DNA of 32,000 nucleotides from Candidatus Heimdallarchaeota archaeon (GCA_030668875.1 DAOVER010000015.1:30001-62000), one strand, 5' to 3'; positions 2,349-22,723 are shown, numbered from the stretch's first letter. The notes: a model not told the origin generated them from the letters alone. Program-made: numbers and translations.

Positions 2349-2885
2349 TTAACTTATCTTCTTAAATACCAAAACTTTTTTTGTTTTTTCTTTTAGCTCA
2401 AATAAATTATCTTTTGTTATATTTTGGATTAGTTTTTCTTCGGATATTTGCCATCTTTGTATGGAAATACAACCATCATTCTTTAGAATTCTATACATCT
2501 CCGTTAATACTTTATCAAGAAATTTATTTAGAAAGTGCATGAAACCAAAAAGAAATGCTAAATCAATACTATTGTTATCTAAAGATGTTTCTGTAACATC
2601 TTCTAATAATGGTTTAACATTCTTGACACCAGTTTTATTAATTTTCTTTTCAATTTTTTTAATCGCATAAGGGTTAATATCATTCGCATAAATTATGCCT
2701 TCTTCACCAACGATTTTAGCAGCTGGAATAGTAAAAAAACCCGGACCACAACCAACTTCTAGAACATGTTGACCTGTTTTTAATCCAGCCGGAATGAGCA
2801 GTTTTTTTGGGTTCATAAATAAACTATACATTTTCTCGTGAATAAAAGAAGTCATTACAAAAGCTGTTTTTTCATGAAATGACAT
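2349..2885 (-). CDS. Class I SAM-dependent methyltransferase
   Basis: Motif I VLEVGCGPG, acidic motif ANDIN, EMYRILK. I place the start at ATG 2885 (MSFHEK), just after the upstream gene's stop and a GAGGGGA RBS, rather than at 2933. Confidence 0.8.
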   Translation of the reverse strand: MSFHEKTAFVMTSFIHEKMYSLFMNPKKLLIPAGLKTGQHVLEVGCGPGFFTIPAAKIVGEEGIIYANDINPYAIKKIEKKINKTGVKNVKPLLEDVTETSLDNNSIDLAFLFGFMHFLNKFLDKVLTEMYRILKNDGCISIQRWQISEEKLIQNITKDNLFELKEKTKKVLVFKKIS

Positions 2886-2886
2886 A

Positions 2887-3537
2887 CTATCCCCTCTTTT
2901 CACAAACAAACTCACAATATTCATTGCCTTCAAAAATAGTTTTACCTATTCCATCTCTATGAAATACAACTTTATCAGGGCAATAAATGTTGTACAATGC
3001 ATTATCGACGTTACACATTATCTTTGTAATCTCAGGTACTCCAAGTCTTTTGAAAAGTCCACTATGCATACAGCTTTTAACTCTGAAATGGTATTTTTTC
3101 TCTGAAGATTCAATGATTTCTATTCTATTTGCTCTTGTTGGACCTTCTGCAATCGCTATTTCATGATATTTTTTTAAGTTTTCAAATGAACGATTTGTTT
3201 CAGCATAGCGAAAATTCCCTAATTGAACAGATATTGCTACAGGTGTAATAATAGCTTGAATTGTTGATAAGGCCCTTTTTTCATCGGTCTTTTTCTTTAA
3301 GATCAGATACATTGATGAGATTAAAGCTACTTGCTTTTTTATGTCACCAGGCATTTTTTTTGGTAACTTCCTTTCCAAACTAGGAACTTTCATCAATGTT
3401 TTTATTAGAAACCAAAATGGTCTTTTAATATATCCTATTATTCCTCCATAAGCTATCAGAATAGTCGATGGTTTTGCTTTATTTTCAATAGATGTTTTCA
3501 ACATAGTTGATACCAATATAGGTATATGCGCAAACAC
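2887..3537 (-). CDS. Putative L-2-amino-thiazoline-4-carboxylic acid hydrolase (ATC hydrolase)-like protein
   Basis: C-terminal pattern FRVKSC-x4-F-x2-LG-x-PE-x4-MC-x-VD ... R-x5-TIFEGNEYCEF, with the Cys-Cys-Cys spacing I recall for this family. Confidence 0.55.
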   Translation of the reverse strand: MFAHIPILVSTMLKTSIENKAKPSTILIAYGGIIGYIKRPFWFLIKTLMKVPSLERKLPKKMPGDIKKQVALISSMYLILKKKTDEKRALSTIQAIITPVAISVQLGNFRYAETNRSFENLKKYHEIAIAEGPTRANRIEIIESSEKKYHFRVKSCMHSGLFKRLGVPEITKIMCNVDNALYNIYCPDKVVFHRDGIGKTIFEGNEYCEFVCEKRG

Positions 3538-3657: not shown

Positions 3658-4170
3658 TTGCTAAAGATAAACGAAAACCATCTGGAAAAAGTTGGAGATT
3701 TAGTAGATGTAAATACAAGCGATTTAACAAAGAATAGATTCGGTAAAAAAATAACTCTGGTCTATTATTATTTGATACAATTTTCATTCTTCATATTTTC
3801 TAGCTTAGTAGGACTAGTATTTGGTTTGTATAGTAGACCTATTGCTACTTATCCTTATAGTGGGTTTCCTCAAAGATATATTTATGGATCAATAATATTA
3901 GCAATAACTCATAGTGGAAATCTGGGTTTATCCTACCAACTAAGTAGAAAAAAAAGACTGATATTGAGTAAGAGAGAACCTAAGATATTATCACCCCTTT
4001 ATATATATCCAATAATAGTTCTAAATTTAATTATGTCAACAATAAGTCTTTTTTCAACACATAATTTTGTATTTGATGGAAGTATATTCACTATAGGTAC
4101 TTTGTATGGAGTTTATGAAAAAAAGAACTTGAATATTAAGAAAAATTTCAGTAAGATTAAGAATGCATAA
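3658..4170 (+). CDS. Membrane protein paralog P1 of 7 (putative radical SAM substrate; subfamily A)
   Basis: AAGGAG RBS and TTG start. Leader NENHLEKVGDLVDV, three hydrophobic segments, YPY loop, C-terminal LYGVY (Tyr codon 4105) and basic tail. Confidence 0.85.
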   Translation: MLKINENHLEKVGDLVDVNTSDLTKNRFGKKITLVYYYLIQFSFFIFSSLVGLVFGLYSRPIATYPYSGFPQRYIYGSIILAITHSGNLGLSYQLSRKKRLILSKREPKILSPLYIYPIIVLNLIMSTISLFSTHNFVFDGSIFTIGTLYGVYEKKNLNIKKNFSKIKNA

Positions 4171-4335
4171 ACATGAATATACCATTCTGGAAAATAAAAC
4201 TAAACTGTAATTGAGGACTAAAATACTACTCTAAAGATGGTTTAACTATGCAAAAAAATGCTTTATTACTCAAGTTCAAGGAAATTTTTTTATATTCTTT
4301 TGTACACATATAAGTATATAATAAAACAATTGATG

Positions 4336-4372
4336 ATTGATGATTAAGTAAAATTAGATGTAAATCAAGGAG
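4336..4372 (+). repeat. Conserved 5' module upstream of P2 (copy 2 of 3)
   Basis: attgatgattaagtaaaattagatgtaaatcaaggag, preceded by an extra attgatg unit. Confidence 0.8.
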
Positions 4373-4375
4373 TGG

Positions 4376-4816
4376 GTGAGGATAAACGAAGACAAATTAG
4401 AAGAAGTTGGAGATTTAGCAAATGTAAATCCAGATGATCTTAAACAGAAAAGAAAGAAAAAGGTAATAGGACGTCTCATTTTTTACTTTATTCAAATATT
4501 CTTCATTTTATTTTCATCACTACTTGGTTATCTATTTGTTTTATGGGAACACGCTGATAGAACAGCCTACCCCCATGGAATTGCGCCTAGACAGGCATAT
4601 GGTGGACTTTTTACTCTAGTTGGTCTTATTGGTGCTAATGGTACAATTTCCTATTATTATAGAAAGAAAAACAAACTTCGCTATATTGAAATGATACCAG
4701 TTCAAATTGCAAACATTGTAATCTCCTTAATTGGCTTTTATTTTATCTGTGGATTAGTTTATCAACCAGAGGTGTTTGTAGGAACCCCATTATATGGTGT
4801 CTATAGAAAAAATTAG
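4376..4816 (+). CDS. Membrane protein paralog P2 of 7 (subfamily B)
   Basis: AAGGAG RBS and GTG start. NEDKLEEVGDLANV leader, YPH loop, LYGVY (Tyr codon 4793). Confidence 0.85.
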   Translation: MRINEDKLEEVGDLANVNPDDLKQKRKKKVIGRLIFYFIQIFFILFSSLLGYLFVLWEHADRTAYPHGIAPRQAYGGLFTLVGLIGANGTISYYYRKKNKLRYIEMIPVQIANIVISLIGFYFICGLVYQPEVFVGTPLYGVYRKN

Positions 4817-4901
4817 TTTTTCAAAATTTAACTCGCACAAGTTCTAGAAATTTTAAATAATTTTCCATACAGCTACCAGACACTTTGTTTTACAAATTCT
4901 C

Positions 4902-4915
4902 GGAAACCTTTTAAG
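4902..4915 (+). promoter_or_regulatory. BRE/TATA candidate for the P3-P7-rSAM-MTase operon
   Basis: GGAAAC-C-TTTTAAG in the P2-P3 gap, upstream of a tightly packed gene run. Confidence 0.45.
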
Positions 4916-4989
4916 TAATTTTGCATATTTCTTCACAACACATAAAATAATCTAAAGTGCATAATAATCCAAATACAGAATGTGATAAC

Positions 4990-5463
4990 TTGAATAAGGG
5001 AAATGTTGAACAAGTTGGAAAACTTGTTGATGTAGATCCATCTGATATCAAACGAAAGAACAGGCGGAAGGTTACTGGGTATGTGATTCATTACTTTGTT
5101 CAAGTTTTTGTCTTTCTATTATCGTCATTATTTGGTTATTTATTCATTCTGTGGGAAAACGCAGATCAATCAAGTTATCCATATGGAACGTTCCCAAGAC
5201 ACCTCTATTTAGGTCCAATAAGTCTATATGGTCTATTTCAAGGTAATGCCATATTTACCTATTTCCACAGAAAAAAACATAAGTTTCGCAACATTGAAGT
5301 ATTTCCAGTAGTATTTGTAAATCTTATAGTCTCTCTCATAAGTTTCTTCATGATTTTTAACGCAATATACCAAGGCCCAGCTCCTACTTTAGGTGTTGCC
5401 GTTGCTTATGGTATTTATGAAAAGGAAAATCCAAGAAGTTTTAAAAAAGTAATGAAAATATGA
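4990..5463 (+). CDS. Membrane protein paralog P3 of 7 (subfamily B)
   Basis: Alignment with the other paralogs favours TTG 4990 (LNKGNVEQVGKLVDV) over GTG 4957. YPY loop, AYGIY (Tyr codon 5407). Confidence 0.8.
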   Translation: MNKGNVEQVGKLVDVDPSDIKRKNRRKVTGYVIHYFVQVFVFLLSSLFGYLFILWENADQSSYPYGTFPRHLYLGPISLYGLFQGNAIFTYFHRKKHKFRNIEVFPVVFVNLIVSLISFFMIFNAIYQGPAPTLGVAVAYGIYEKENPRSFKKVMKI

Positions 5464-5477
5464 AGGAGTTTACACTA

Positions 5478-5972
5478 ATGAACAAAGAAAAATTATCTAA
5501 GGTAGGAGCTTTAACCGAGTTAAAATCTGAGGATATAACTCCGAAAAAGATTAGAAAGAATTTAACTTTAGCTTATTATTATATTATACAGTTTGTATTC
5601 TTCATATTTTCAAGCCTTGTTGGAGTTGTTTTTGGTTTGTATGGCAACTCTCTTTCTTTCTATCCCTATAATGCTTTTCCTCAAAGATATCTCTATGGAT
5701 CAATAATATTAGCAATAACCCATGGAGGTAATTTTGGTCTATCTTACCAATTAAGTAGAAAAAAAAGGTTGATGTTGAGCAAAAGTGAACCTAAGGTGTT
5801 ATCTCCTGTCTATATATATCCGGCAATTGTTCTAAATTTTCTCCTATCAACAATAAGTCTTTTCTCAATACATAACTTAGTAACCAACGGAAGTCCATTA
5901 ACTATGAATACTCTTTATGGTGTATTTTCTAAAGGAAAATCTAATAGAATTAGGAAAATCATGAAAAAATGA
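5478..5972 (+). CDS. Membrane protein paralog P4 of 7 (subfamily A)
   Basis: AAGGAG RBS overlapping the P3 stop, then ATG 5478 (MNKEKLSKVGALTEL). YPY loop, LYGVF (Tyr codon 5916). Confidence 0.85.
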   Translation: MNKEKLSKVGALTELKSEDITPKKIRKNLTLAYYYIIQFVFFIFSSLVGVVFGLYGNSLSFYPYNAFPQRYLYGSIILAITHGGNFGLSYQLSRKKRLMLSKSEPKVLSPVYIYPAIVLNFLLSTISLFSIHNLVTNGSPLTMNTLYGVFSKGKSNRIRKIMKK

Positions 5973-5986
5973 AAGAGGTTATAAAA

Positions 5987-6484
5987 ATGAATGAAAAGAA
6001 ATTGAATGAAGTAGGGAAATTAACTGAAGTTGATTCTAAAGATATAACTCAAAACAAATTCAAGAAGAAAATCACTTTAATGTATTTCTATTTTATTCAG
6101 CTTGGTTATTTAGCGATCTCAAGTTTAGTTGGATACTTATTTGGTTTGTATAAGAATGCGAATAACAGTTATCCATACAATGGATTTGATCAGAGTTACA
6201 TTTTCGGACCACTTCTCGTAGCTATTATTCACGGAGGCAATCTTGGGATGTATTATGGATTGAATAAAAGTAATAGATTAATTCTGAAAGACGGTACAAA
6301 TGCTAAACCATTACCTTTCCATATCTATCCTGTTGTTTTTCTGAATATACTTCTATCTATATTCTCCTTCTTCTTCATCTATAATGATATGATTAGTGGA
6401 TATGTTTTCACAGCTACAACTGATTATGGTGTATATATTAGAAAGAAAGTTCAATTTCATAATAAGCGAGCCAAAAATAATTGA
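5987..6484 (+). CDS. Membrane protein paralog P5 of 7 (subfamily C)
   Basis: GAGGT RBS then ATG 5987 (MNEKKLNEVGKLTEV). YPY loop, DYGVY (Tyr codon 6425). Confidence 0.85.
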   Translation: MNEKKLNEVGKLTEVDSKDITQNKFKKKITLMYFYFIQLGYLAISSLVGYLFGLYKNANNSYPYNGFDQSYIFGPLLVAIIHGGNLGMYYGLNKSNRLILKDGTNAKPLPFHIYPVVFLNILLSIFSFFFIYNDMISGYVFTATTDYGVYIRKKVQFHNKRAKNN

Positions 6485-6518
6485 TGATAGACCAAAATAG
6501 ATGTAAATATTGGAGGAG
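6480..6518 (+). repeat. Conserved 5' module upstream of P6 (copy 3 of 3, more diverged)
   Basis: attgatgat-agacc-aaaat-agatgtaaat-attggaggag. It overlaps the P5 stop codon. Confidence 0.65.
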
Positions 6519-7034
6519 ATGAAGATAAACGAAAAAAAACTAGAAGAAGTTGGAGCATTAACAGAGGTAGGTTCTGCGGATATAACTAAGAATAAGATTA
6601 GAGCAAAAATCACCTTAGTTTATTATTATCTTATACAACTTGGATTTTTAGTTGTCTCAGGATTTATTGGATATCTATTTGGTATGAACAAGAATACTAG
6701 TTCTGCTTATCCGTATAGTGGATTCGATCAAAGTTACATTTTTGGGTCCATTTTTATAGTAATTGCCCATGGAGGAAATTTCGGTTTATCTTATGGATTG
6801 AGCAAGAAAGACAAATTAATTTTAAAGAAAGGGGCAAATATTAAACTATCTCCTTTCTATATCTATCCTGCAGTTTCCTTAAATTTTGTTTTATCAATAC
6901 TAAGCTTCTTAGCTATCTATAATCTGGTGTTTAGTGGGGATGTTTTCACAACTACAACACGTTATGGAGTATATGAACAAAAGATATGCAAAATCTCGAA
7001 ATGTAAATATAATACTAATAATAAAATGAGTTGA
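6519..7034 (+). CDS. Membrane protein paralog P6 of 7 (subfamily C)
   Basis: GGAGGAG RBS then ATG 6519 (MKINEKKLEEVGALTEV). YPY loop, RYGVY (Tyr codon 6963). Confidence 0.85.
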   Translation: MKINEKKLEEVGALTEVGSADITKNKIRAKITLVYYYLIQLGFLVVSGFIGYLFGMNKNTSSAYPYSGFDQSYIFGSIFIVIAHGGNFGLSYGLSKKDKLILKKGANIKLSPFYIYPAVSLNFVLSILSFLAIYNLVFSGDVFTTTTRYGVYEQKICKISKCKYNTNNKMS

Positions 7035-7039
7035 AATTT

Positions 7040-7543
7040 ATGAACGAAAAAAAGCTCGAAGAAATTGGGAAACTCACAGAAACGGATCCAAATGATTTAG
7101 CAATGAATAAAATCAAGAGAAAAATTTCTTTGATGTTTTATTATATTATACAATTTGTATTTTTAATAACTTCAGGACTGATTGGGTTTATATTTGGTAT
7201 TTATGAAAATGAGATAAATACTTATCCTTATGTTGGTTTTGATAAAAATTACATTATCGGACCTATTCTTGTAGTAGTAGTTCAAGGAGGGAATTTTGGC
7301 ATGTCATATGGACTGAGAAAATCAAACAAATTAATATTAAAAAAGGGAACAGAGACTAAACTTTCTCCTTTCTATATCTACCCTGTTGTTTTTCTAAATC
7401 TGATTTTATCGTTATTGCTGTTTTTATCTATCTATCAGATGTTTGTACCTAGATTTTCTCAAACGACATTCCCAATGTATGGCGTATTTATAAGAAAGGA
7501 ATTAAAAAGTAAAAATGTATTAAGTAGGATTAATTATGTATAG
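7040..7543 (+). CDS. Membrane protein paralog P7 of 7 (subfamily C)
   Basis: ATG 7040 (MNEKKLEEIGKLTET). YPY loop, MYGVF (Tyr codon 7478). Overlaps the radical SAM gene by 8 nt. Confidence 0.85.
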   Translation: MNEKKLEEIGKLTETDPNDLAMNKIKRKISLMFYYIIQFVFLITSGLIGFIFGIYENEINTYPYVGFDKNYIIGPILVVVVQGGNFGMSYGLRKSNKLILKKGTETKLSPFYIYPVVFLNLILSLLLFLSIYQMFVPRFSQTTFPMYGVFIRKELKSKNVLSRINYV

Positions 7544-8600
7544 ACTAGATTGTGCGATTTGGGAACTCACGTTAGCTTGTAATATGAATTGTAAACATTG
7601 TGGGTCAAGTGCTGGAAAAGCTAGAAAAGATGAGCTTTCTTTAGATGAGTGTTACGAATTATGTAAAGAATTTGCAGATGAAGGATGTAACTTAGTTACA
7701 TTGATGGGTGGGGAACCATTTGTTAGAAAAGATTGGAACCAAATTTCTTGGTGTATCAAAGATCTTGGAATGGACCTAGGGTATGTGACAAATGCACTAC
7801 TAGTTCCTAATATCATTGAAGACTTAATTTTACTTGAACCACTGGTTGTCGGTATCTCTTTGGATGGCGTGAAAGAAACTCACGATAGTATCAGAATAGA
7901 AGGGTCATTTGATGCTGTAATTAAGGCATTAGATCTTCTCGAAGAAGCTGGTATTCAAATAACTATAATTACTACTCTAAGCAAAACCAATTTCAAAGAA
8001 TTACGAAAAATAAAAGAAATCATCCAAAATAGAAAAATAAATTGGCAGTTACAAATAGGTTTACCCTTTGGTAACTTTGATCCTGCGCTTACTTTGAGTT
8101 TAGAAGAGTTTTACGCTTCTGCAATGTTTATCACTGCTGAAGGAATTAAGAACAAATTCAGAGAAATGCCTGTAGTTGGAGCACATTGTTATGGGTATTA
8201 TTCCCATCTTCTTCCAAACAACAAAAATTGGAAGGGATGCACAGCGGGTATAAATACGGTAGGAATAACTTCCGATGGTTCAATTGTAGGGTGTTTATCA
8301 ATGGGCAACAATAAATTTATTGAGGGTAATGTCAGAGATCGTAGCTTCTCTGATATCTGGAATGATCCTAATTCCTTTGCATACAATCGGCAATTTACTA
8401 GAGATAACTTAGGTGAGAATTGTGTTAATTGCTTCTATGGTGAAACCTGCAAAGGTGGATGTAATTCTTCTTCTCTTCATCTTACTCACACTTTTCATAA
8501 CAATCCTTACTGTTTCAAGCAAATTGAAGAAAACCTCTTTGAGGTTAAGCCATACCGTAAGGAGATTAAGTGGTTAAAAGAAAAAGGAGTTAAGATCTGA
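7536..8600 (+). CDS. Radical SAM/SPASM domain enzyme, splicease (PlpX)-like peptide/protein maturase
   Basis: C15-x3-C19-x2-C22, GGEP, SLDG and SPASM cysteines (GCTAG...GC...CVNC-x5-CKGGC...NNPYC). Subfamily call rests on recalled motifs WELTLACN..C.HCGS.AGKAR.DELS, WQ.Q...P.GN, GYY and W.GC.AG. Radical SAM-SPASM is certain; the splicease assignment is less so. Confidence 0.9.
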   Translation: MYRLDCAIWELTLACNMNCKHCGSSAGKARKDELSLDECYELCKEFADEGCNLVTLMGGEPFVRKDWNQISWCIKDLGMDLGYVTNALLVPNIIEDLILLEPLVVGISLDGVKETHDSIRIEGSFDAVIKALDLLEEAGIQITIITTLSKTNFKELRKIKEIIQNRKINWQLQIGLPFGNFDPALTLSLEEFYASAMFITAEGIKNKFREMPVVGAHCYGYYSHLLPNNKNWKGCTAGINTVGITSDGSIVGCLSMGNNKFIEGNVRDRSFSDIWNDPNSFAYNRQFTRDNLGENCVNCFYGETCKGGCNSSSLHLTHTFHNNPYCFKQIEENLFEVKPYRKEIKWLKEKGVKI

Positions 8601-9883
8601 TGATAAAACTAAATTTAGGCTGTGGTGTATTCTATAAACCTGGATATGTCAATATTGATTTATCAGAAAAGGATGTAGCTGATGAGGTACAGAATGTTGC
8701 TGAACTTAAGTATGAATCTAATACTGTAGATGTCATAGAAGCATCCCATATTATCGAACACTTCGATATTATTCATCTTCCATACGTTCTTGCAGAATGG
8801 TTTAGAGTACTAAAACCAGATGGGGTTTTATACATCGAAACTCCAAATTTATTGAAATCAATAATTACTTTGAAGCCTAAAAACTATGAGTCAAAGAAAC
8901 TCACATATCAATTTCTATTCGGTATTGATTATGAAGGAAATTCCCACAAAATGGGTTTCACTTCTAAATTTTTAAAGAAATATCTTCTCTCTACTGGTTT
9001 TACAAAGATATCCAAACAAAAGCAAAGAAGCTTCAATTCAGAGAAGAGTATAAGGTACTGTTGCAGGAAACCTACTGATACTCCATTGACGAACAAAAAA
9101 TTCTTTCTAAATCATTTAAGAACACTTATTAAAAATCAATTCGGTTTATCAGATACTCTCTTCTTAGATCATTGTGAGTCAAATTGTATGAGTTTTTTCA
9201 GAAACTTGAAACTAAAAAATGACATGGATAATTTGAACGATGAATTATGCTTAGAACTAATAGCTTCCCTAACACTTTTTAGTCCCAAAGTAGCTAAAAT
9301 CTTCATTAAGCTTTTCTCAGACAACTTGCCTGCTAACATTAATCTTGATATAATAGATTATTTAGATTCAATAGATTTCTCATCTAGAATGTATGAGAGT
9401 TGGAAGAGTTGGATAAAAAATAAAGATGGAACTATGTACGCTGCATTTTATTTCTACAATCACTGGACTTCAAAAATAAAGAAAAATTTGTTAGCAGAAA
9501 CTAAAATTGATGTTATGTATGATTACATTGAATCATTAGATAAAAGTGATTACAATTACTTCTGTTTTGAGCAAGTAAATATCTTATCTCTCAGGACATC
9601 TAATCAAGGTTTACGATACTTCTCCAACAAAAATTTTGAGAAAGCAAAGGAGTTATTTCTAGAAGCATTGAAGCTTCAACCCTATGATCCAGTTTCAAAC
9701 TGGAATCTAGCTAGATTATCTAAAAATTCTGATAACAAAGAAAAGTTGCTCTTCTATTACAAACAAGCAATTATGAATGTCTCATCTAGAAAGCACAAAA
9801 AGAAAATTAGAAAGGAAGTTAAACTTCTTAAGAACGGTAATAGTAAACTAATATCTTCAGAACCTATTCAAATTAGATTCTAG
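8600..9883 (+). CDS. SAM-dependent methyltransferase-like domain fused to a helical region and C-terminal TPR
   Basis: KLNLGCG, VNID, ASHIIEHF, EWFRVLKPDG at the N-terminus. TPR-like NQGLRYFSNKNFEKAKELFLEALKLQPYDPVSNWNLA at the C-terminus. ATG overlaps the radical SAM TGA. Confidence 0.75.
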   Translation: MIKLNLGCGVFYKPGYVNIDLSEKDVADEVQNVAELKYESNTVDVIEASHIIEHFDIIHLPYVLAEWFRVLKPDGVLYIETPNLLKSIITLKPKNYESKKLTYQFLFGIDYEGNSHKMGFTSKFLKKYLLSTGFTKISKQKQRSFNSEKSIRYCCRKPTDTPLTNKKFFLNHLRTLIKNQFGLSDTLFLDHCESNCMSFFRNLKLKNDMDNLNDELCLELIASLTLFSPKVAKIFIKLFSDNLPANINLDIIDYLDSIDFSSRMYESWKSWIKNKDGTMYAAFYFYNHWTSKIKKNLLAETKIDVMYDYIESLDKSDYNYFCFEQVNILSLRTSNQGLRYFSNKNFEKAKELFLEALKLQPYDPVSNWNLARLSKNSDNKEKLLFYYKQAIMNVSSRKHKKKIRKEVKLLKNGNSKLISSEPIQIRF

Positions 9884-10000: not shown

Positions 10001-12400
10001 GTGACAAAAGCTATTAAGGACACAGATAACATCTGGCAACCATCTGAAAATCTTAGTCCGAGAATAAAAAGATTAAGAGATGAATATTTCTCCTTTTACG
10101 AACGTTATGATTATTATACGAATGAAGTTCGCCCTTACACAACAGGTACTTCTTGGGATGATGTTTATAGTTATACTAACTGGGGAGCAGCTCCTGAGGG
10201 GCTTGACTTTTTTCCAGGTTATAAAGACAATCTACGCTCTTTAGCTGAAAAGGTTGAATTTCCTAATGAGTTCTATAAATTATCTATTGCTGAAAGAAGA
10301 GCTCATTTCTTAAACAAAGTTGTTGAGAAAAATCTCCCTGCTATTATCCTTAAAGGTGAATTAATTATAGGAAGCCATTTCAGTACAGCTTTAAGTAGAA
10401 CTCTTACAAAATCTGAAACAAAGAAGTGGTCAAAAGATCAGAATAAATACTTCAAGGAGTTAGTTTTTAGATGTGAAACTGGGGAATTTAACTATGGTGC
10501 CATTCCTGGTCATCTAATTCCAAACTATGAAAAAGCTATAAAGATTGGTTTCTCTGGTATTCAAAAAGAGTTGAAGGAATTAAGAAAATCTCCAAAGAAC
10601 AAAGAACATTCTCAATGGCTTGATGCACTCATTGAGTCTTGTGAGGTCCCTAAACTGCTTGCTGAACGATATTCTAAGGAAGCAGAGAAACTAGCTAAAC
10701 TGGAAAAGGACCCTAGTAGAAAATCTGAGCTTCTCTATCTCTCTCAAATTTGTAAAAAAGTTCCTTGGGAGCCTGCTGAATCTTTCTGGGAAGCTGTACA
10801 ATCTCTTTGGTTTACTCATATTTTAGTTATGGCAGCTGAAAGCTATCCTGGACCAGGAACAAGTCCTGGACGAATTGATCAGTATCTCTACCCTTACTTT
10901 AAACAAGATATTGACAACGGAAAAATAGATTATGATTTTGCAAAGGAGATCTTAAGTTGTTATTGGATTAAACACAATTATGCTTATGATTTTCAAGGAC
11001 AAGTTGGAAATTCTCAAGGAATAAATTCTAGTTTTGGTCAATTAATTACTCTTGGTGGAATAGATGAAAATCATGAGGATGCATCAAATGAATTAACACT
11101 TTTAATGTTGGATATAATCGATGAAATTAATCTTCTTGAACCCAAGCCTAATGTAAGAATTCATGCGAAGACATCAGATAAAGTCGTGAAGAAAGTTGCT
11201 GAAATGATTGTTAAATCTCAAGGAAGTCCATTCCTGATGAATTTTGACGAAACAGCTATGAAAGGACTGATTTGGCAAGGTATACCTGAGGACGAAGTTT
11301 GGAATTATGGTCCCGTTGGTTGTCTAGAAAATACTATGATTGGTAATGATGTTTCCGGAACCGTTGATGTTAATGTTAACATTGCTAAGGCAGTTGAACT
11401 AACATTGTTCAATGGTAAAGATCTCCAAACAAAAAAGCAAGTAGGACCAAAAACAGGAAATCCAAAGAAATTCAAAACATTTGATCATTTTAAAGATGCA
11501 TACATTAAGCAACTCACTGCCTTGCTAGATAGAGCTATTGACGCAAATAATCATGCTGATATGATAAGAGCAGTTTACGAGCCTGTTCCGTATGTTTCTC
11601 TATTAATCGATGGATGTGCAGAATCTGGCAAAGATTGTAGAGCTGGAGGAGCTAAATATAATTTCATAACGGTCGAAGCTTTAGGTTTAGCAAATGTCGC
11701 TGATTCTCTAGCTGCTGTTAAAAAACTTGTTTATGAAGAAAAAAGAATAACAATGGATCATCTTCTAAAAGCTCTTAAGAAAAATTATGAAGGATATGAA
11801 GAAACTAGACAACTACTGCTAAATCATGCTCCTAAGTATGGTAATGATGATGATTATGTAGATAGTATCGCACGAGAGATTTCTCAATATTGGGGGATCT
11901 ATGTTTCAACAAAAACTTCCCCTATTACTAACAGACAGTATCGTGGTGGTTATCTTTCTTGGAATTATTTCATTTCTTTTGCACCCAAAACTGGAGCTCT
12001 TCCAGATGGTCGTCCAAGAGGAGCTTACTTATCGGGTGGTGTTGGACCAACTCAAGGTGTTGATACCAGTGGTCCAACAGCTTCTATAATGAGTGTTGGT
12101 AAACTTGGCGTGGAAGTACAACCTAATGGATCATCTCATACAATGTCATTTAGCCCAGCAAGTCTTCGAGATGAGGAACATGTAGAAAAACTCATTGCAC
12201 TTCTTAGGGCCTATGGGCATGTTGGGGGAACTGCGTTACAAACAAATGTTGTCAGTATTGATACACTCAAGAATGCTCAAACTGATCCAGAGAAATATAG
12301 AAACCTCTTAGTACGAGTTACAGGATATAATGCGTATTTCACAACCTTAGGAAAAGAACAACAAGATGAGATAATTGCAAGAGAATCTCATAAAGTCTAA
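10001..12400 (+). CDS. Glycyl radical enzyme (PFL2/dehydratase-lyase-like; substrate unknown)
   Basis: C-terminal LLVRVTGYNAYF (Gly775), active-site loop GCLEN (Cys441), SPGRIDQYLYPY, GALPDGR. 799 aa. Confidence 0.9.
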   Translation: MTKAIKDTDNIWQPSENLSPRIKRLRDEYFSFYERYDYYTNEVRPYTTGTSWDDVYSYTNWGAAPEGLDFFPGYKDNLRSLAEKVEFPNEFYKLSIAERRAHFLNKVVEKNLPAIILKGELIIGSHFSTALSRTLTKSETKKWSKDQNKYFKELVFRCETGEFNYGAIPGHLIPNYEKAIKIGFSGIQKELKELRKSPKNKEHSQWLDALIESCEVPKLLAERYSKEAEKLAKLEKDPSRKSELLYLSQICKKVPWEPAESFWEAVQSLWFTHILVMAAESYPGPGTSPGRIDQYLYPYFKQDIDNGKIDYDFAKEILSCYWIKHNYAYDFQGQVGNSQGINSSFGQLITLGGIDENHEDASNELTLLMLDIIDEINLLEPKPNVRIHAKTSDKVVKKVAEMIVKSQGSPFLMNFDETAMKGLIWQGIPEDEVWNYGPVGCLENTMIGNDVSGTVDVNVNIAKAVELTLFNGKDLQTKKQVGPKTGNPKKFKTFDHFKDAYIKQLTALLDRAIDANNHADMIRAVYEPVPYVSLLIDGCAESGKDCRAGGAKYNFITVEALGLANVADSLAAVKKLVYEEKRITMDHLLKALKKNYEGYEETRQLLLNHAPKYGNDDDYVDSIAREISQYWGIYVSTKTSPITNRQYRGGYLSWNYFISFAPKTGALPDGRPRGAYLSGGVGPTQGVDTSGPTASIMSVGKLGVEVQPNGSSHTMSFSPASLRDEEHVEKLIALLRAYGHVGGTALQTNVVSIDTLKNAQTDPEKYRNLLVRVTGYNAYFTTLGKEQQDEIIARESHKV

Positions 12401-12414
12401 AGAGCAAATCTCTA

Positions 12415-13368
12415 ATGTCAGTAAACCAAAACCTTTCAGGTAGAGTATTAAACATCCAACGATTCTCAACAGAAGATGGACCTGGTATCAGAACAACCAT
12501 TTTTCTTCAAGGTTGTGCGTTACGATGTAAATGGTGTCAGAATCCTGAAAGTTGGTATTTAAAACCTCAATTAGTATGGTACGATGATAGATGTATAGCA
12601 GCTAAAGATTGCTTATTAGCATGTCCGGAGGATGCACTAGACCTTACAGCTGAAGGAATGGTTATTGATAGAGAAAAATGTACGGGTTGTGGGAAATGTG
12701 TAGTAGCATGTCCAACAAAATCATATGAAATTATGGGGAAAGAAATGTCTGCAACAGCAGTCATTAAACAAGCTTTACGTGACAAAACATTCTATGAACA
12801 ATCTGAAGGTGGAGTGACAATTTCAGGAGGGGATCCTCTCTTTCAGCAGAAATTTAGTCTGGAAATACTTAACTCCCTAAAACAAGAAGGAATTCACACT
12901 GCAATTGATACAACAGGTTTTTCTAAACCAGAAGAATTTCAGCAATTGGTGGATCTTTCTGATTTAATACTTCTAGACTTCAAACAGATGAACCCTAATT
13001 TACACAAAGAATTTACAGATGTAGATTTAGATAAAATTCTTACAAACGCTAAATGGTTGGGTGTACAAAAAAAGAAAGTTTGGATAAGAACTCCAATTAT
13101 TCCCGAGTATACAGATCAAGAAGAGAATATAATTGAAATTGCTAAATTCATAAAAGAGAATATGAGTGATGTTGTTGAAAGATGGGATCTACTAACTTAC
13201 AATAATCTATGTGTTTCAAAATGGAAAAGATTAGATATTTGTTATGAATTAGAACATTTACCTTTAGTAACAACATCAAAAATCCAGAAACTTGCAGACT
13301 TAGCAAAAGAGTCTGGTGTGCCTGTCACTTGGACAGGAGTCTTACAAAAAAATGAAAATGATGGATAA
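12415..13368 (+). CDS. Glycyl radical enzyme activating enzyme (radical SAM, long form with ferredoxin insertion)
   Basis: DGPGIRTTIFLQGCALRCKWCQNPES, insertion CIAAKDCLLAC...CTGCGKCVVAC, GGVTISGGDP, WIRTPIIP. Lies directly downstream of the GRE. Confidence 0.92.
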   Translation: MSVNQNLSGRVLNIQRFSTEDGPGIRTTIFLQGCALRCKWCQNPESWYLKPQLVWYDDRCIAAKDCLLACPEDALDLTAEGMVIDREKCTGCGKCVVACPTKSYEIMGKEMSATAVIKQALRDKTFYEQSEGGVTISGGDPLFQQKFSLEILNSLKQEGIHTAIDTTGFSKPEEFQQLVDLSDLILLDFKQMNPNLHKEFTDVDLDKILTNAKWLGVQKKKVWIRTPIIPEYTDQEENIIEIAKFIKENMSDVVERWDLLTYNNLCVSKWKRLDICYELEHLPLVTTSKIQKLADLAKESGVPVTWTGVLQKNENDG

Positions 13369-13376
13369 GAGTAAAA

Positions 13377-14168
13377 ATGAAATTAACAGAAAAAGCAAAA
13401 GAAGCATTTAATATCTTTGAAGCTGCTAAATTTATGGCAACTAAAGATGAGGCTAACATCCCTAATATTGCTATGATCGCAACCTTAAGTCCATGGGGTG
13501 AAGATGAACTAATCTTTGGAACATTTTTAATGTGGCAGACTGAGAAGAACCTTCGAAGTGGTTCTCCTGTTACTGCTAGTGTTATGACAACTAACTTTGA
13601 TAGTTATCAAGTAAAGGGAGAATTTCTAGGTTTCGAGAAGCAAGGTGAAAAATTTGATACTTTGAGTAATTTAGATCTTTTTAGATATTCAGCTATCGGT
13701 CTTCTTAGATCAGTTGGAACTATTGCAGTTAAAGAAGTTAAACCTCTCAATTTAAGTTTGTTTTCCGTAGCACGAGAGTGGATGTCAACAAAATTTGGTG
13801 GTAAAAGACCAAAAGATTTTCCGGAAGGTAAAAAAGCTAATCCAATAGTTGTTAAGAACACAAGCGTCCTGATGGGTGCCAAATATCTTACCGTCATAAG
13901 AGACAACGAATTAGAACAGTTTCCAGTTCTTGGGATGAGACCCGTAGAAGATTATTTAGCGATTAGAGCTGATTTACCTTTAGAAGTAGGAGAAAATGTT
14001 GCAGTATCTTCTTTCAACCTTGGTCTTAAAGCATATCAGTTTAAAGGAACATATCAAGGTGTAAAAAGAGCTAGAGGTATCACTTTAGGTTACGTAAAAG
14101 TAGATAGAATACTTTCACAGACTCCTCCTTTAGTTTCTAAAGAGGTTCCTTCAGATAATTTCAATTAG
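13377..14168 (+). CDS. Pyridoxamine 5'-phosphate oxidase-like (split-barrel) protein with two tandem domains
   Basis: FMATKDEANIPN...QTEKNLRSGSPV...SYQVKG is echoed by KYLTVIRD...ENVAV...AYQFKG. Confidence 0.65.
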   Translation: MKLTEKAKEAFNIFEAAKFMATKDEANIPNIAMIATLSPWGEDELIFGTFLMWQTEKNLRSGSPVTASVMTTNFDSYQVKGEFLGFEKQGEKFDTLSNLDLFRYSAIGLLRSVGTIAVKEVKPLNLSLFSVAREWMSTKFGGKRPKDFPEGKKANPIVVKNTSVLMGAKYLTVIRDNELEQFPVLGMRPVEDYLAIRADLPLEVGENVAVSSFNLGLKAYQFKGTYQGVKRARGITLGYVKVDRILSQTPPLVSKEVPSDNFN

Positions 14169-15728: not shown

Positions 15729-17276
15729 TTAACTTCTTTTTTTACTTCTTCTTGGAAGTCTTAATACTAAAAGGAATAGAAATAAAATCATAATAGAAGG
15801 TACAAAAAGAATGTTTGCTATAACAGTGTACTCTTCATCAATTTTATCTGAAAGCGGATATGTGTCTGCTGAGTTACTAGCTCCATCTATCTCATAATCT
15901 CCACTTTCAAAGTCACTCCAGAAATTTCCCTCTAAGGTTGTAGGATTGTACCATAGATTTTCTTCACCATCATCATATGCTTGACTCTCACCCATTTGGT
16001 TATTACTGTAAAATTCATTATGATCTATTTGATTCCAATAACTCTCATAATCGATATATACTCCATAATCCCGATTATGATGGAAGTAATTGTAATTAAT
16101 TGAAATATTATTACTATTCATTAAATGAAGACCATTTCCATCGTTATAAGATATGGAATTCTTTTCAATCATATTTTCTGAACATTTATATAAGAAGATA
16201 CCATTTAAACCATTTTGAAGAATTGAATTCCGAGATATCAAGGTACTTACTATACCTTCTGCACTGATTCCTTTATATCTACTCTCTTCGATTTTATTTG
16301 AATAAATAAAAGCCCCAATAATCTCTTTTAAAGATAAACCAATATTATTACTTTGTGAAATGTTATTAAACTGTATTATCGGATAATTAGCAGTTTCATA
16401 AAAGATACTTTCTACAGACTCAATCAATATTCCAACTTCAGTTTTCGAAATACCATTTTTACTTATAAGTAAAGTGTCACAATTTATAGCACGTATACCA
16501 ACATCACCAGCTGAAAAAATTATATTAGATACAACTTTACATCCTTCAGAGTATTCTATATCTATTGAATTATCATCTAAATTATAGTACATATTGTTAA
16601 GAAATGAAAAATGATTGTTATAAATTAATGTCCGGTCAGAGTGACTAGTTAGTATTCCATTATCACACAAGAAAAACTGATTATTATATATATGACAATC
16701 ATCTGAATGACTAATCATAACTGGATATAGACACTTAGAGAAAGTATTGTTAGTTAAATAACAAAACTGAGAATAATAATTGTAAATACCAGCCTCACAT
16801 CTAGAGAAAATATTCCATTCCAATTTAACACGATATGAATTTTCTACTCTTATCCCATTTATCATCGAATATGAGTTACCATTGAAAGTGTTATTGACAA
16901 TGTTTATTGTTTCATTTAGAATGTCTTTGATTTTTATTCCATAAATACCTTCATAAAAAGTACAGTTACGTATTTCGATGTGTTTAGTTGTTTTATAAAT
17001 GTAAATAACATTCTCAGTTGAAGGTTGTCCTGTAAAAATGATATTTTCAATTAAGAAAGGATTTTCAATAGTTCCATTTCCTGTTAAACTAAGTAAATCT
17101 GGATCTGAATCAGAGGTGATTAAAATCTCATTTATTGAATCTAGATTTGGATTTACATTCAATTGCACTAATGAAGAAGAAGTATTAATCAGAGCAAAGA
17201 AAAATAACGAAAATAATAAACATATTAGAAAAGTAGTTTTCAATATATTCTTTTGATTGATACTTTTCCACTTCAT
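15729..17276 (-). CDS. Right-handed parallel beta-helix (NosD/PbH1-repeat) surface protein
   Basis: Repeated I-x-x-N-x-[FI]-x-x-N/C...GI units, GNGTIENPFLIEN, terminal GNFWSD...DTYPL. N-terminal signal and C-terminal TM with basic tail. Confidence 0.8.
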   Translation of the reverse strand: MKWKSINQKNILKTTFLICLLFSLFFFALINTSSSLVQLNVNPNLDSINEILITSDSDPDLLSLTGNGTIENPFLIENIIFTGQPSTENVIYIYKTTKHIEIRNCTFYEGIYGIKIKDILNETINIVNNTFNGNSYSMINGIRVENSYRVKLEWNIFSRCEAGIYNYYSQFCYLTNNTFSKCLYPVMISHSDDCHIYNNQFFLCDNGILTSHSDRTLIYNNHFSFLNNMYYNLDDNSIDIEYSEGCKVVSNIIFSAGDVGIRAINCDTLLISKNGISKTEVGILIESVESIFYETANYPIIQFNNISQSNNIGLSLKEIIGAFIYSNKIEESRYKGISAEGIVSTLISRNSILQNGLNGIFLYKCSENMIEKNSISYNDGNGLHLMNSNNISINYNYFHHNRDYGVYIDYESYWNQIDHNEFYSNNQMGESQAYDDGEENLWYNPTTLEGNFWSDFESGDYEIDGASNSADTYPLSDKIDEEYTVIANILFVPSIMILFLFLLVLRLPRRSKKRS

Positions 17277-17297
17277 ATCAATTTTCTAGTTGATTTG

Positions 17298-18341
17298 TTA
17301 AGATTTTAAATATTTCTCGATTTCTTCTCTTTTCAATTCAAATTCTAATTCTGTCAGCCATAATTTATGGTTTAATGTCTTATTGATCTTAATCATATGC
17401 TCATTACTCCCAGCATTGCCTGTTATCCAGTACTTAGCATTAGTTTCTTCAAGGAGCTGCAACAAAGATTGATATTTTAACATCAAACCTAATCCCTTCC
17501 CTCTATGTTCTGGAATTACCCCAGTGTCATCTTGCCAGGCTACTTGCTTATTCAATGGATTTGTACTAAAAATAGTATACCCTACAGGTTTGTTCGTTTC
17601 TTCATGTATACATAGAAAAGAATAGTAATTATCACCACCGAGCATTTCAATATCATACATCTCTTTGTATCTTTCAGGAGTTAGAGTATGATCTTCATAA
17701 GTAAGTTTTTCTCTTGGCATATCATTCCATATCTGTTGAACAACAGTAACGAATTCTTCAATGTCAACATGATTTTCAAATGTCATATTCTTAACTTCAA
17801 CAACTCTATAACCTTTCTCCTTTGCTTTTTTCAGAAGTTTATTAGCTTCCTCTCTCACTTTATTGACATTAAATTCTGTTAAATCTGCAGCATTACGTTT
17901 CTCTTGATAGTCATTATCTTTCTTTATTTTTCTTAGAAAGAACTCTCCATTAGATCCTAGAACACTTCCTGCATATATGAGTTTAATTTGCTCCGGGGGT
18001 TTAGTGATAAGAGCTTTAAGCATTGATTTTCCAATCCCTTTTCTTCTGTGCTCTTTAGCAACATATGCAACAAACCAACCTCTATCAAGATTTTCATATT
18101 TTATATTCCATCCGATAATCCCAAAGCCTACAACAAGATCCTCTGAGTTTATTGCTACTGCTCTTAACTTCTTAATCCAATAAACTTCTCTGACTTTCCA
18201 TTTCTTTCTAAACAACTCAATCTCAGGCGGTAAAATTCCCCACTTCTCCTCCTCCTCTAGTTGTTGAAGAGCAAACAGCTGTTCTAAATATTTTACTGGA
18301 ATGTCTTCTTTGTTGCCAACAAGGATTTTGATGTCATTCAT
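17298..18341 (-). CDS. Tandem GNAT family N-acetyltransferase
   Basis: Two acetyl-CoA motif A copies (YVAKEHRRKGIG; TGVIPEHRGKGLG) and TGNAGSNEHMIKINKTL. Confidence 0.85.
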   Translation of the reverse strand: MNDIKILVGNKEDIPVKYLEQLFALQQLEEEEKWGILPPEIELFRKKWKVREVYWIKKLRAVAINSEDLVVGFGIIGWNIKYENLDRGWFVAYVAKEHRRKGIGKSMLKALITKPPEQIKLIYAGSVLGSNGEFFLRKIKKDNDYQEKRNAADLTEFNVNKVREEANKLLKKAKEKGYRVVEVKNMTFENHVDIEEFVTVVQQIWNDMPREKLTYEDHTLTPERYKEMYDIEMLGGDNYYSFLCIHEETNKPVGYTIFSTNPLNKQVAWQDDTGVIPEHRGKGLGLMLKYQSLLQLLEETNAKYWITGNAGSNEHMIKINKTLNHKLWLTELEFELKREEIEKYLKS

Positions 18342-18468
18342 TTAGATTATCTCAGATTGAGAAAATAGTTATTGGTTTAAGATTATTATTACTTTGGAGA
18401 TATGTGAGTAAAGAAACAATTAAAATCTTGAAACAATTATACATAATAATTAACCTAGGTTTACTAAA

Positions 18469-19392
18469 ATGTCTACAAAACAAGAGCATCAGCAGATTAC
18501 TTATGTCTGTAATACTTGCACAAAAAAAAGAATTATACTATTTCCAGCAGGAATGGAAATTAAAGTTGATTCAAGAGGCTTAAGTGAGTTTGTAGACATT
18601 CACAAATGCAAAGATGATAAACTGATAGCACTAATCTTGTTTGTTGATGGTCAATACGCAGTCAGATCTCAGGTACCAATAAGCAGCGAGGAAGCTACAA
18701 AATCTATTCCAGACGATCTAGCAAGTATGCCTGTACCAGTTCCAAGAAAGTCAGGGCTAGCAAAAATAAAAATTAACCCTCCTAAAAGCTTCAAAGCTTC
18801 TGTTATTAATGAGTTAATTATTAAAGATAGATTACGACAACTTCAATATTCATTGGAACCAAAAAAAACTGATGATGATCGCGATATAATGATTGATTCT
18901 CAATTCTGTTTTGTTCATATCCGCGCTAATGTTTCCAAGAAAACTGATTTAGTAAAGGCAAAAAGATGGTTCAAAGAAATAGCAAACTTGCTTGAACAAA
19001 CAGTACATATCAACGATGAAGTTTTTACTTTACTTTTGGAATATCTTGAAGAAAAATTAAAGAAGGATGATTTCATCCAAGAATTCAAAGAATTAATGAT
19101 ACTCTTAAATGGACCAGTAACAGTTCCTATCTCTACTAAAAAGTCGATTAAAGATTTTGATAGTAGATGGGGGAGCATAGATGGAAAGTTAACTCTAGGA
19201 GACTATAATAAGTATAATAAACTATTATTAGCTTGCTTAGATAACAAACAGAAAACACTTCTTGATATCTTCTCTCTTATGCAAGGACGCATGAAATTAT
19301 CCTATTTCCTCTCTGCATTTTATGACCTATTCTGTAACGCTTTTATGAAACTAGAAAAACCACAATTCTTCGCAACTTCCGATTTTGAATAG
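18469..19392 (+). CDS. Hypothetical protein with putative N-terminal Zn-binding motif
   Basis: 307-aa ORF with CNTC...HKC near the N-terminus, followed by LILFVDGQYAVRSQ. Confidence 0.6.
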   Translation: MSTKQEHQQITYVCNTCTKKRIILFPAGMEIKVDSRGLSEFVDIHKCKDDKLIALILFVDGQYAVRSQVPISSEEATKSIPDDLASMPVPVPRKSGLAKIKINPPKSFKASVINELIIKDRLRQLQYSLEPKKTDDDRDIMIDSQFCFVHIRANVSKKTDLVKAKRWFKEIANLLEQTVHINDEVFTLLLEYLEEKLKKDDFIQEFKELMILLNGPVTVPISTKKSIKDFDSRWGSIDGKLTLGDYNKYNKLLLACLDNKQKTLLDIFSLMQGRMKLSYFLSAFYDLFCNAFMKLEKPQFFATSDFE

Positions 19393-19418
19393 ACAAATAA
19401 AACAAAAGGGGATTTTGG

Positions 19419-21329: not shown

Positions 21330-21365
21330 ATAGAATTCACCAAGAGAATTGTTATTTTATGAGTA

Positions 21366-21378
21366 TATGCACTTATAA
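21366..21378 (-). promoter_or_regulatory. Archaeal TATA box upstream of SBP gene
   Basis: TTATAAGTGCATA, matching the TTATAAGTGTATA of the other two SBP promoters. Confidence 0.55.
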
Positions 21379-21577
21379 GGAGTTTGCGAGTTTTAGGTCC
21401 TTTCTACAAATCTTGATGATTTTTTCAGTTTTGAACAACCTTGTTGCTAAGGTGGTTATCTAGGAACTACGTCTATACAAGAAGGTCTAGCATCACTTCT
21501 AAATTGATCTATCTCCCTTATAGGAAGGTATTATTGAAATTGAGAAGTCAAATAAAATAGCGAATAGGCGCTCTTCC

Positions 21578-22603
21578 TCAATTAACCTTTTCTTCTAATA
21601 AGGTGACTTGATCCCTATACTTCTTCCATTTCTTTGATAAGAAAACAAGAATTAAACATGGAATTACATTTACTGTAAGTAGAAGTGCTCCATAAATGAG
21701 AAACTCACCATCATAAAAACAATGGACCATAATTAGATATCCTGCAGCATTTAACCATTCAAATGCCAAATCTGCATTTCTATTATAAATCGGTAAATCA
21801 TTATTTATCCAATAACTCTCATATGGTAGAATAATGGAATCAATAATCGATGCTTCCCCATCAAAGATTTGGTAATTTATATCCTCTCGGTCTATAGTAT
21901 AGCATATTGTTTTACGTACTCCACTTGCCACAGAATTAAGTTCCTTTCCAGGCGCTGTTATATATACATAATTGTCACAACCTCCAACAAAGGGTCTTTG
22001 CAAGTTAAACCCAAGATAAATAGATTGATTGTAAGATTCATGAACTAAAGTAACTATTGGGAATAAGCAGACTAGCTTATCCATAGCAAGATCTTGGAAT
22101 TCAAGTAAATAGTCTCTCTTCTTAATTGGATTTGACTCATTTGTTGCATTAACTAACAAATTGTTTGCTAGCATCACATAAGGTATAGTTAGATTCAGAT
22201 TTGTTGGATTATTATAATTACTTACATTCCAAAAAAGCTGTTCTGTTATTTCAGAAGTATTCAGACTTATGAGAAATAAATCATAATCATGGGTAACATT
22301 CAGTTGAGAACTGAATATTCCTCTTTCTACTACTTTCATTTCAACTTCAATTAGTATTGATCTAAGATTCTTAACAATAATTAATCCAATATCAAGCAAT
22401 CTATCTTCAGCTGTAGTTTTGAGAACTAAATTGCATATAGGTTCAGGATAGTTTGGACCTTCATTGAAAATTATTGGTGGAGGGTTCCTTTTCTTCCAGT
22501 GCATTATGAAAAATCTTGTTGAAAAAACTAAATCTGTTAAAATTAAAATAATCATCAAACTAGAAACAACTATAACTATAGTTTTCTTTGTCTTATTTTT
22601 CAT
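21578..22603 (-). CDS. Shortened family-5 solute-binding protein paralog (one lobe only), with TM segments at both ends
   Basis: CNLVLKT...LFPIV is joined by a short linker to YLGFNLQRPF...VRKTICYTIDR...AFEWLNAAGY. The central region present in the paralogs is absent. Confidence 0.75.
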   Translation of the reverse strand: MKNKTKKTIVIVVSSLMIILILTDLVFSTRFFIMHWKKRNPPPIIFNEGPNYPEPICNLVLKTTAEDRLLDIGLIIVKNLRSILIEVEMKVVERGIFSSQLNVTHDYDLFLISLNTSEITEQLFWNVSNYNNPTNLNLTIPYVMLANNLLVNATNESNPIKKRDYLLEFQDLAMDKLVCLFPIVTLVHESYNQSIYLGFNLQRPFVGGCDNYVYITAPGKELNSVASGVRKTICYTIDREDINYQIFDGEASIIDSIILPYESYWINNDLPIYNRNADLAFEWLNAAGYLIMVHCFYDGEFLIYGALLLTVNVIPCLILVFLSKKWKKYRDQVTLLEEKVN

Positions 22604-22629
22604 CTTATGTTTTCATCCTTCTTACTCTA

Positions 22630-22688
22630 CAAGGGATTTACATTGAATCATCCAGATTCATGTATTATACTATTATACACTTATAAAT
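22630..22688 (-). repeat. Duplicated promoter plus decayed gene start (copy 1)
   Basis: caagggatttaca...cagattcatgtattatactattatacacttataaat. A 13-nt identical block and a 35/36 block are shared with 26350-26409. Confidence 0.85.
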
Positions 22689-22723
22689 ATTAACAAAATT
22701 TTTTAACAGATTCCCATGAAATT

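Follow-up and report, generated by a model that had tools for sequence, protein, structure and literature searches.

A radical SAM and methyltransferase cassette with seven paralogous membrane proteins as candidate substrates in Asgard archaea

Nine genes and seven small membrane proteins

A stretch of 32,000 nucleotides from a Candidatus Heimdallarchaeota archaeon (GCA_030668875.1, DAOVER010000015.1:30001-62000; hereafter the window, with positions counted from its first letter) was analyzed. By the ORF listing, its plus strand carries nine genes between 3658 and 9883, namely seven small-protein ORFs (P1 to P7), one gene for a radical S-adenosylmethionine (SAM) enzyme with a SPASM domain (rSAM; 7536..8600, 354 aa) and one gene for a protein that combines a methyltransferase domain with tetratricopeptide repeats (MT-TPR; 8600..9883, 427 aa). 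These genes very probably constitute a self-contained three-component protein-maturation cassette with P1–P7 as its substrates. The genome belongs to Heimdallarchaeaceae by the names of homologs and was assembled from marine sediment; four DNA sequencing runs of one marine-sediment study, possibly those from which it was assembled, contained the stretch, and no RNA run was among those listed.

The seven small proteins were 146–174 aa in length (145–170 aa had been claimed in the original prediction) and, as described there, tandem, mutually homologous and polytopic. Their identity to P1 was 33–60%, 19 alignment columns including an adjacent Tyr and Gly were invariant, and a joint profile of P1–P7 matched all seven and no other protein in the 3.2 Mb genome. 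They fell into three subtypes, all encoded on the plus strand: A (P1, 3658..4170, 170 aa; P4, 5460..5972, 170 aa), B (P2, 4376..4816, 146 aa, with a short loop 2; P3, 4957..5463, 168 aa) and C (P5, 5969..6484, 171 aa; P6, 6510..7034, 174 aa; P7, 7031..7543, 170 aa). The two motifs pointed out earlier, an N-terminal leader-like stretch N-E-x-K-L-x-E-[VI]-G-x-L (KINENHLEKVGDL in P1) and X-Y-G-[VI]-[YF] near the C-terminus, were present in all seven, with 3–19 residues after the latter, and X-Y-P-[YH] after the first hydrophobic segment (TYPY, aa 64–67 in P1) was likewise common to all. The tail motif read L-YGVY in P1 (aa 150–153, nt 4105–4116) and P2 (nt 4793–4804, with 3 residues after it), A-YGIY in P3 (nt 5407–5418), L-YGVF in P4 (nt 5916–5927), D-YGVY in P5 (nt 6425–6436), R-YGVY in P6 (nt 6963–6974) and M-YGVF in P7 (nt 7478–7489), so that those of P4 and P7 end in Phe.

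Three membrane helices were predicted in P1–P7, with the tail motif at the end of the last one. The AlphaFold2 (AF2) model of P5 (pLDDT 76; helices 9–18, 30–65, 76–100, 116–141 and 155–170) supported a polytopic fold, in which a short N-terminal helix and three long helices are followed by a disordered linker holding Y153-G154 and by a terminal amphipathic helix. Positive charge was found on the N-flank, loop 2 and tail of the three-helix precursors, and with three helices charged in this manner the positive-inside rule cannot be satisfied. For relatives with very short tails, the same rule would put both Tyr motifs at the outer membrane face. Searches of P1–P7 against Pfam and NCBIfam gave sub-threshold matches alone, which were treated as chance; DUF981 for P2 (E 0.004) and MSC_0624 for P3 (E 0.002) were set aside for this reason. 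When the P5 model was compared by fold with AlphaFold DB clusters, the best E was ~0.1, with a 143-aa uncharacterised protein on top.

The genes from P3 onwards are tightly packed, with overlaps of 4 nt each at P3/P4, P4/P5 and P6/P7, and with the previously noted overlaps of 8 nt at P7/rSAM and 1 nt at rSAM/MT; the gaps were 205 nt (P1–P2), 140 nt (P2–P3) and 25 nt (P5–P6). The spacers 5' of P1 (3538–3657, 120 nt) and P2 (4171–4375, 205 nt) had ~40 nt in common (..TTGATGATT..GATGTAAATCAAGGAG, ending in GATGTAAATCAAGGAG), and a shorter version, GATGTAAATA, was found 5' of P6 (6485–6509), indicating that the duplications took the 5' region with them. P1 and P2 may each be transcribed from a promoter of their own. 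Shine-Dalgarno-like GGAG lay 0–3 nt from the called TTG/GTG starts, and the starts are therefore uncertain by a few codons.

Conservation of the cassette and of its motifs

Of 399 Asgard genomes, 18 contained relatives of P1–P7 by the joint profile, mostly in tandem arrays of 2–5 genes with few exceptions, and the cultured Promethearchaeum syntrophicum MK-D1 was among the Asgard genomes with the cassette, with three precursors at ~1.576–1.578 Mb of NZ_CP042905.2. At 15 of the 15 Asgard loci with enough flank (13 genomes), the array stood beside orthologs of rSAM and MT-TPR (52–88% and 30–80% identity to the enzymes of the window, respectively), while gene order differed among Asgard lineages and flanking genes were not conserved from locus to locus. 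Eight further cassettes were found in a Thermoplasmatota metagenome-assembled genome (MAG), in GCA_019058315.1 and in metagenome contigs, so that the co-occurrence with the radical SAM gene that the original prediction had proposed as a check was borne out well beyond the window. In all eight contexts that were opened, the order was MT (388–437 aa), 1–3 small proteins and rSAM. Close relatives of the rSAM (>53% identity) included proteins assigned by source names to Heimdall-, Hel- and Hodarchaeota, Promethearchaeota and Thermoplasmatota. At E <=1e-90, rSAM was found in 52 of the 399 genomes, representing 17 of 85 genera, showing that the cassette is accessory and patchily distributed. The earlier remark that neither a transporter nor a leader protease is visible also held, as no transporter or protease gene adjoined the cassette within the window and none was conserved with it across the loci compared.

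Two representative proteins, P0210 (728 aa) and P0223 (834 aa), consisted of MT-TPR fused to rSAM, which is direct evidence of the two enzymes working together. The P0210 fusion locus (L097:1283-6187, ENA contig_70242) encoded three soluble precursors ending ..[RKL]-Y-A-V-F.., and a second, separate rSAM/SPASM gene (403 aa) was situated directly upstream, so that the system occurs here in a version with two rSAM genes. A divergent precursor homolog was also seen on its own (L051:184-630, G140:C299); neither rSAM nor MT was within reach on its 5-kb contig, and the genome of this homolog had a full cassette on a different contig. Taken as a whole, the cassette very probably is one unit with the small proteins as its substrates.

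In GCA_019058315.1, soluble peptides of 54 and 65 aa occupied the position of the membrane proteins, and G-Y-P-[FY] and Y-G-V-Y were all that they had in common with other precursors; these soluble peptides (locus L053) were without the conserved N-terminal helix. A membrane anchor is thus frequent yet dispensable, and it is the motifs that the system requires, so that membrane proteins, which the original prediction had taken as the defining substrates, are not a constant of the system. The loci with soluble precursors also bear on the idea that the small membrane proteins are partners of the enzymes (anchor, immunity or transport), with rSAM and MT acting on a target encoded at another site, on a small molecule or on a lipid. 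The proteins are indeed far larger than classical precursors of RiPPs (peptides made on the ribosome and then modified post-translationally), and neither a protease nor an exporter is linked to them. However, the soluble peptides of GCA_019058315.1 and the soluble ..YAVF.. proteins of the fusion locus fill the same position, indicating that the motifs and not a membrane function are conserved; an invariant short motif in multiple tandem copies is a typical precursor trait, and related rSAMs are fused to Y-G repeats. We consider such a partner role very improbable.

Motif statistics were compiled over 64 family precursors with 66 motif copies. The tail Tyr was present in 66 of 66 copies, followed by G (43), N (14), S (6), D (2) or A (1) at position +1, V (58), T (4), I (2) or S (2) at position +2, and Y (37), F (27), H (1) or W (1) at position +3. 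Position −1 varied, with L and M most frequent, and 1–56 residues came after the motif, which was never C-terminal. In an alignment of 53 sequences, five columns were invariant, i.e. the Y-P pair, two polar helix residues and the tail Tyr, and G16 of the leader was at least 90% conserved. Conservation of the whole YG pair, as expected from the seven paralogs, thus did not extend to the wider family, where Tyr alone was invariant and N, S, D or A stood in place of Gly in ~35% of precursors. Since the +1 residues G, N, D, S and A are small and mostly of the turn or left-handed type, their choice suggests a conformational rather than a chemical requirement.

This pattern would also suit a different chemistry. 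With the same cassette and substrates, rSAM might crosslink its precursors by forming a triceptide-type cyclophane between the Tyr ring and the C-beta of the +2 Val/Thr, or, as a variant, a Val-to-aromatic link at +2/+3, after which MT would methylate the product, e.g. at the Tyr hydroxyl. A motif of the form aromatic-X-X3 has the look of a triceptide crosslink motif. Triceptides and the cassette both combine an aromatic residue, a small residue and a residue with a C-beta hydrogen with an rSAM/SPASM enzyme (a 3-CyFE enzyme in the case of triceptides) and Cys-free precursors. In the family, Y was invariant, +1 was small or turn-forming, +2 was V, T or I in 64 of 66 copies and Ser in the rest, all with a C-beta hydrogen, and +3 was aromatic nearly throughout; replacement of Gly is easier to fit with a crosslink than with the published X-Y-G splice motif. 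Y-[GNSDA]-[VTIS] accounted for 66 of 66 copies, a likeness to triceptides that is a pattern match alone. Crosslinking fits the motif at least as well as tyramine excision, the reaction of spliceases; taking the enzyme evidence below into account, we judge it rather unlikely, although it is the strongest competitor of excision.

Regarding the paralogs themselves, each of the three subtypes had orthologs in four congeneric genomes, in which the arrays read A-B-C or A-B-C-C-C. The seven paralogs are therefore not a random library, and the earlier picture of a freely diversified family had to be given up. The three subtypes point to non-redundant roles, possibly in a hetero-oligomer.

One locus (L054:4178-7014, JGI Ga0527077_0064) had neighbours that look bacterial (PNPase, ribosomal protein bL19 and FtsH with an intein). 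In its precursor of 168 aa, G-Y-P-F occurred twice within a Pro-rich region and the tail was duplicated (..PVFGQAIKYNVYKKR and ..PIFGQAIKYNVYSKR); the system may have crossed between domains.

The two enzymes and the reaction they may carry out

The rSAM is a minimal rSAM/SPASM protein (Pfam Radical_SAM 1e-22, SPASM 1.9e-9) without an N-terminal RiPP recognition element (RRE) domain. Its CX3CX2C motif corresponds to C15/C19/C22, and C218, C235, C253, C296, C299, C305, C309 and C326 were invariant in 43 homologs. Among NCBIfam families, the best match was TIGR03913 (200.4 bits over profile positions 21–357, cut-off 591.75) and the second was TIGR04103 (189.8 bits, cut-off 725), both in full-length alignments; the remaining families scored at most 138 bits, and relatives of the enzyme ranked the families alike. 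Other members of its clade, the trio clade, scored 201–230 bits against TIGR04103. PlpX, the prototype tyramine splicease, belongs to TIGR04103 (IPR026482; PMC11002830), and by the curated cut-offs the rSAM is outside the PlpX family. The description of the enzyme as splicease-like was thus upheld insofar as TIGR04103 ranks among its two best families and its sister subclades, described below, are tied to Y-G sites, while the assignment to the PlpX type was not. Sequence searches against the PDB retrieved generic SPASM enzymes alone, and a complex prediction of rSAM with P5 gave a score of 0.02, which counts as evidence neither way.

TIGR03913 (rad_SAM_trio, 'GDL motif peptide-associated radical SAM/SPASM maturase') is likewise described as belonging to a small cassette that includes a peptide, and the leaders of P1 and P2 contain V-G-D-L; this likeness to the GDL motif is a lead, compared by family name alone. 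On the other hand, the rSAM scores a third of the TIGR03913 cut-off and the profile has 477 positions versus 354 residues in the enzyme. No TIGR03913 member above the cut-off was found in its own genome or in 14 control genomes.

An exhaustive search with rSAM gave 364 representative clusters at E <=1e-30. In many clusters at 33–38% identity, the enzyme was followed by a C-terminal hydrophobic segment and then 4–11 acidic [DE]-Y-G-[VILMF]-x-P repeats. A Bacteroides homolog (36% identity) adjoined a protein with six K-Y-G-[YF]-P-P repeats, and an rSAM of the P0216 clade overlapped a 91-aa secreted peptide carrying KKYGAI and TKYGVI. In a FastTree phylogeny of 150 sequences, the trio clade (support 99) was joined by the MT-fusion enzymes in a weakly supported grouping, and the sister group contained the Y-G-fusion clades. 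Overall, the enzyme belongs to a large superclade in which ties to Tyr-Gly-hydrophobic sites recur and in which tyramine excision is the one activity characterised so far. The tail Tyr is probably the residue modified by rSAM, because Y-G-V is common to the sister subclades and the published splice tags.

These relatives argue against a crosslink at +2, since in the sister-subclade repeats Y-G-[V/I/M/L/F/A]-x-P the +2 position is not fixed. In addition, no cyclophane-forming maturase family appeared in the best 25 of 72 NCBIfam matches of rSAM, and WgkB (111 bits), DynA (75 bits) and SkfB (68 bits) were at the level of general SPASM background, well below the top two families. Thioether formation of the sactipeptide or ranthipeptide type and Trp-crosslink chemistries were rejected, as the precursors contain no conserved Cys or Trp.

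The same score list contained MftC (TIGR03962; 125–134 bits), which raises the possibility that a redox cofactor is made from the conserved tyrosines, in the manner of PQQ (PqqE) or mycofactocin (MftC), either tethered to the membrane or later released. The C-terminal tripeptide of MftA, the substrate site of MftC, is G-V-Y, and methyltransferases are common in quinone-type cofactor pathways. Mycofactocin and the cassette have in common G-V-Y within the motif, an rSAM/SPASM enzyme and Tyr-directed chemistry; two Tyr motifs are invariant, and three conserved subtypes would suit a fixed complex better than a toxin library. However, the score of the window's rSAM against MftC was 124.9 bits, under half of the 265-bit cut-off, and, unlike in mycofactocin, the motif is internal. 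It was never C-terminal and its last aromatic residue was Phe in 27 of 66 copies, so that MftC-type decarboxylation cannot occur. No other mft genes were present, and no MftB/D/E/F-like, PqqB/C/D-like or peptidase genes were linked to the cassette. We regard cofactor formation as improbable.

The nearest characterised relatives, the spliceotide systems (PlpX/PcpX with PlpY, type I; binary RhaX/RasX/RcsX, whose precursors bear leaders, type II), resemble the cassette in several respects. In both, the rSAM has a complete SPASM domain and lacks a fused RRE, and one enzyme is accompanied by several precursor genes. In the splice tags ..YGVVFP and ..YGLPI (PMC10533398), as in P1–P7, a hydrophobic residue comes after X-Y-G. 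In PlpA-type substrates X is natively Met or Leu (PMC9811515), the residues that are also most frequent at −1 in the cassette precursors. Furthermore, the leader helix of RhaA activates binary spliceases (PMC11414181), and the conserved N-terminal helix predicted for the precursors (residues 9–18 in the AF2 model) may parallel it. The cassette differs from spliceotides in that it has no small PlpY-like gene and an obligate MT-TPR, fused to rSAM in some organisms; that most of its precursors are membrane proteins containing two or three hydrophobic segments and, to judge by gene content, left unprocessed; and that it combines a replaceable Gly, a near-fixed +2 Val and +3 aromatic residue, an invariant Y-P motif and archaeal hosts.

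We therefore describe the proposed mechanism in conditional terms. A cytoplasmic rSAM/SPASM enzyme would target the invariant Tyr of the C-terminal X-Y-[G/N/S/D/A]-[V/T/I]-[Y/F], and by analogy with spliceases its reaction may be tyramine excision, a proposal to which we give nearly, but not quite, an even chance. MT-TPR would act as the obligate partner, whose TPR and helical parts may bind the precursor and whose MT domain may methylate the substrate or product. This protein is composed of a Methyltransf_11-type domain and C-terminal TPR with a helical middle region between them. The minimal class I MT domain (~aa 1–160; model pLDDT 90) contains invariant LNLGCG, D20, D28 and E53-H54, and its SAM-binding residues are kept in very distant members. 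Fold and sequence searches of MT-TPR against the PDB gave generic class I methyltransferases and consensus TPRs, with no methyl acceptor indicated.

Several observations weigh against tyramine excision. The score of rSAM is far below the cut-offs of both TIGR04103 and TIGR03913, as are those of ten neighbouring clade representatives, and the tree contains no experimentally proven splicease and has a weakly supported backbone. In the splicease papers examined here the splice motif is X-Y-G with Gly, whereas about a third of the precursors have N, S, D or A in its place. The near-invariant +2 Val/Thr and the +3 aromatic residue have no known splicing role and fit a crosslink motif, and splicing offers no explanation for the second invariant motif, X-Y-P-[YF]. 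Nor is a methyltransferase partner described in any of the splicease papers examined here; a ketoamide has no obvious methyl acceptor, so that MT has no obvious role. Finally, the precursor tail may end up outside the cell, so that modification would be needed before membrane insertion. If the tail is outside, the TPR protein might hold the precursor until insertion.

Surroundings of the locus and significance

Downstream of the cassette, 117 nt past its end, genes for a glycyl-radical enzyme (PFL-like and Gly_radical, 799 aa), its activase (317 aa; an rSAM carrying two ferredoxin-type clusters) and an ORF of 263 aa without a Pfam family followed on the plus strand (10001–14168). The enzyme and activase had no tblastn match in the 17 Asgard loci compared, and a functional tie to the cassette was rejected because the pair is not kept beside it there; at L053, a PFL-like gene was situated ~5 kb away from the cassette. 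Upstream, divergent from P1, the minus strand (2349–3537) encoded a protein of the ATC_hydrolase family (216 aa) together with a class I methyltransferase (194 aa), the two genes overlapping by 47 nt, and this pair was not kept beside the cassette at other loci. Further downstream on the minus strand (15729–26382), two NosD/beta-helix proteins (515 and 551 aa) alternated with three genes resembling those of family-5 solute-binding proteins (636, 341 and 668 aa), and a double-GNAT acetyltransferase was encoded in between; this run looks like a duplicated surface or uptake module.

No paper describing the cassette or linking spliceases to Asgard archaea or Thermoplasmatota was found; the survey of Scott et al. 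2022 (Chem 8:2659), which was outside this search and is reported to have classified ~940 predicted splicease systems from bacteria and archaea and to include 27 spliceases tested by experiment, may list the clade. New in this study are the three conserved precursor subtypes in the seven-gene array and the motif statistics over 64 precursors, as well as the MT::rSAM fusions with ..YAVF precursors and the P0216-type KYG peptides.

The full picture that we put forward, tentatively and with considerable doubt, is that a splicease-derived rSAM and a dedicated MT edit the backbone of archaeal integral membrane proteins at an interface Tyr, which would yield a membrane-anchored reactive ketoamide or a methylated derivative of it, possibly facing outward. 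In this picture, held with the same reserve, the product would be a permanent protein modification and not a secreted natural product, and the three subtypes would form a modified membrane complex. To our knowledge, the backbones that rSAM enzymes have so far been found to splice are those of bacterial peptide natural products and of engineered proteins. If the proposal is true, the cassette would represent the first natural splicing of integral membrane proteins; it would also be the first splicing system that depends on a methyltransferase partner, and the first to be characterised in archaea, here in the closest lineage to eukaryotes. Independently of the reaction, it is a widespread gene set without an assigned function in Asgard archaea, a Thermoplasmatota MAG and metagenome contigs. 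The soluble precursors of 54 and 65 aa provide an easy start for biochemistry, and since MK-D1 is cultured, the modification can be sought directly in a living organism.

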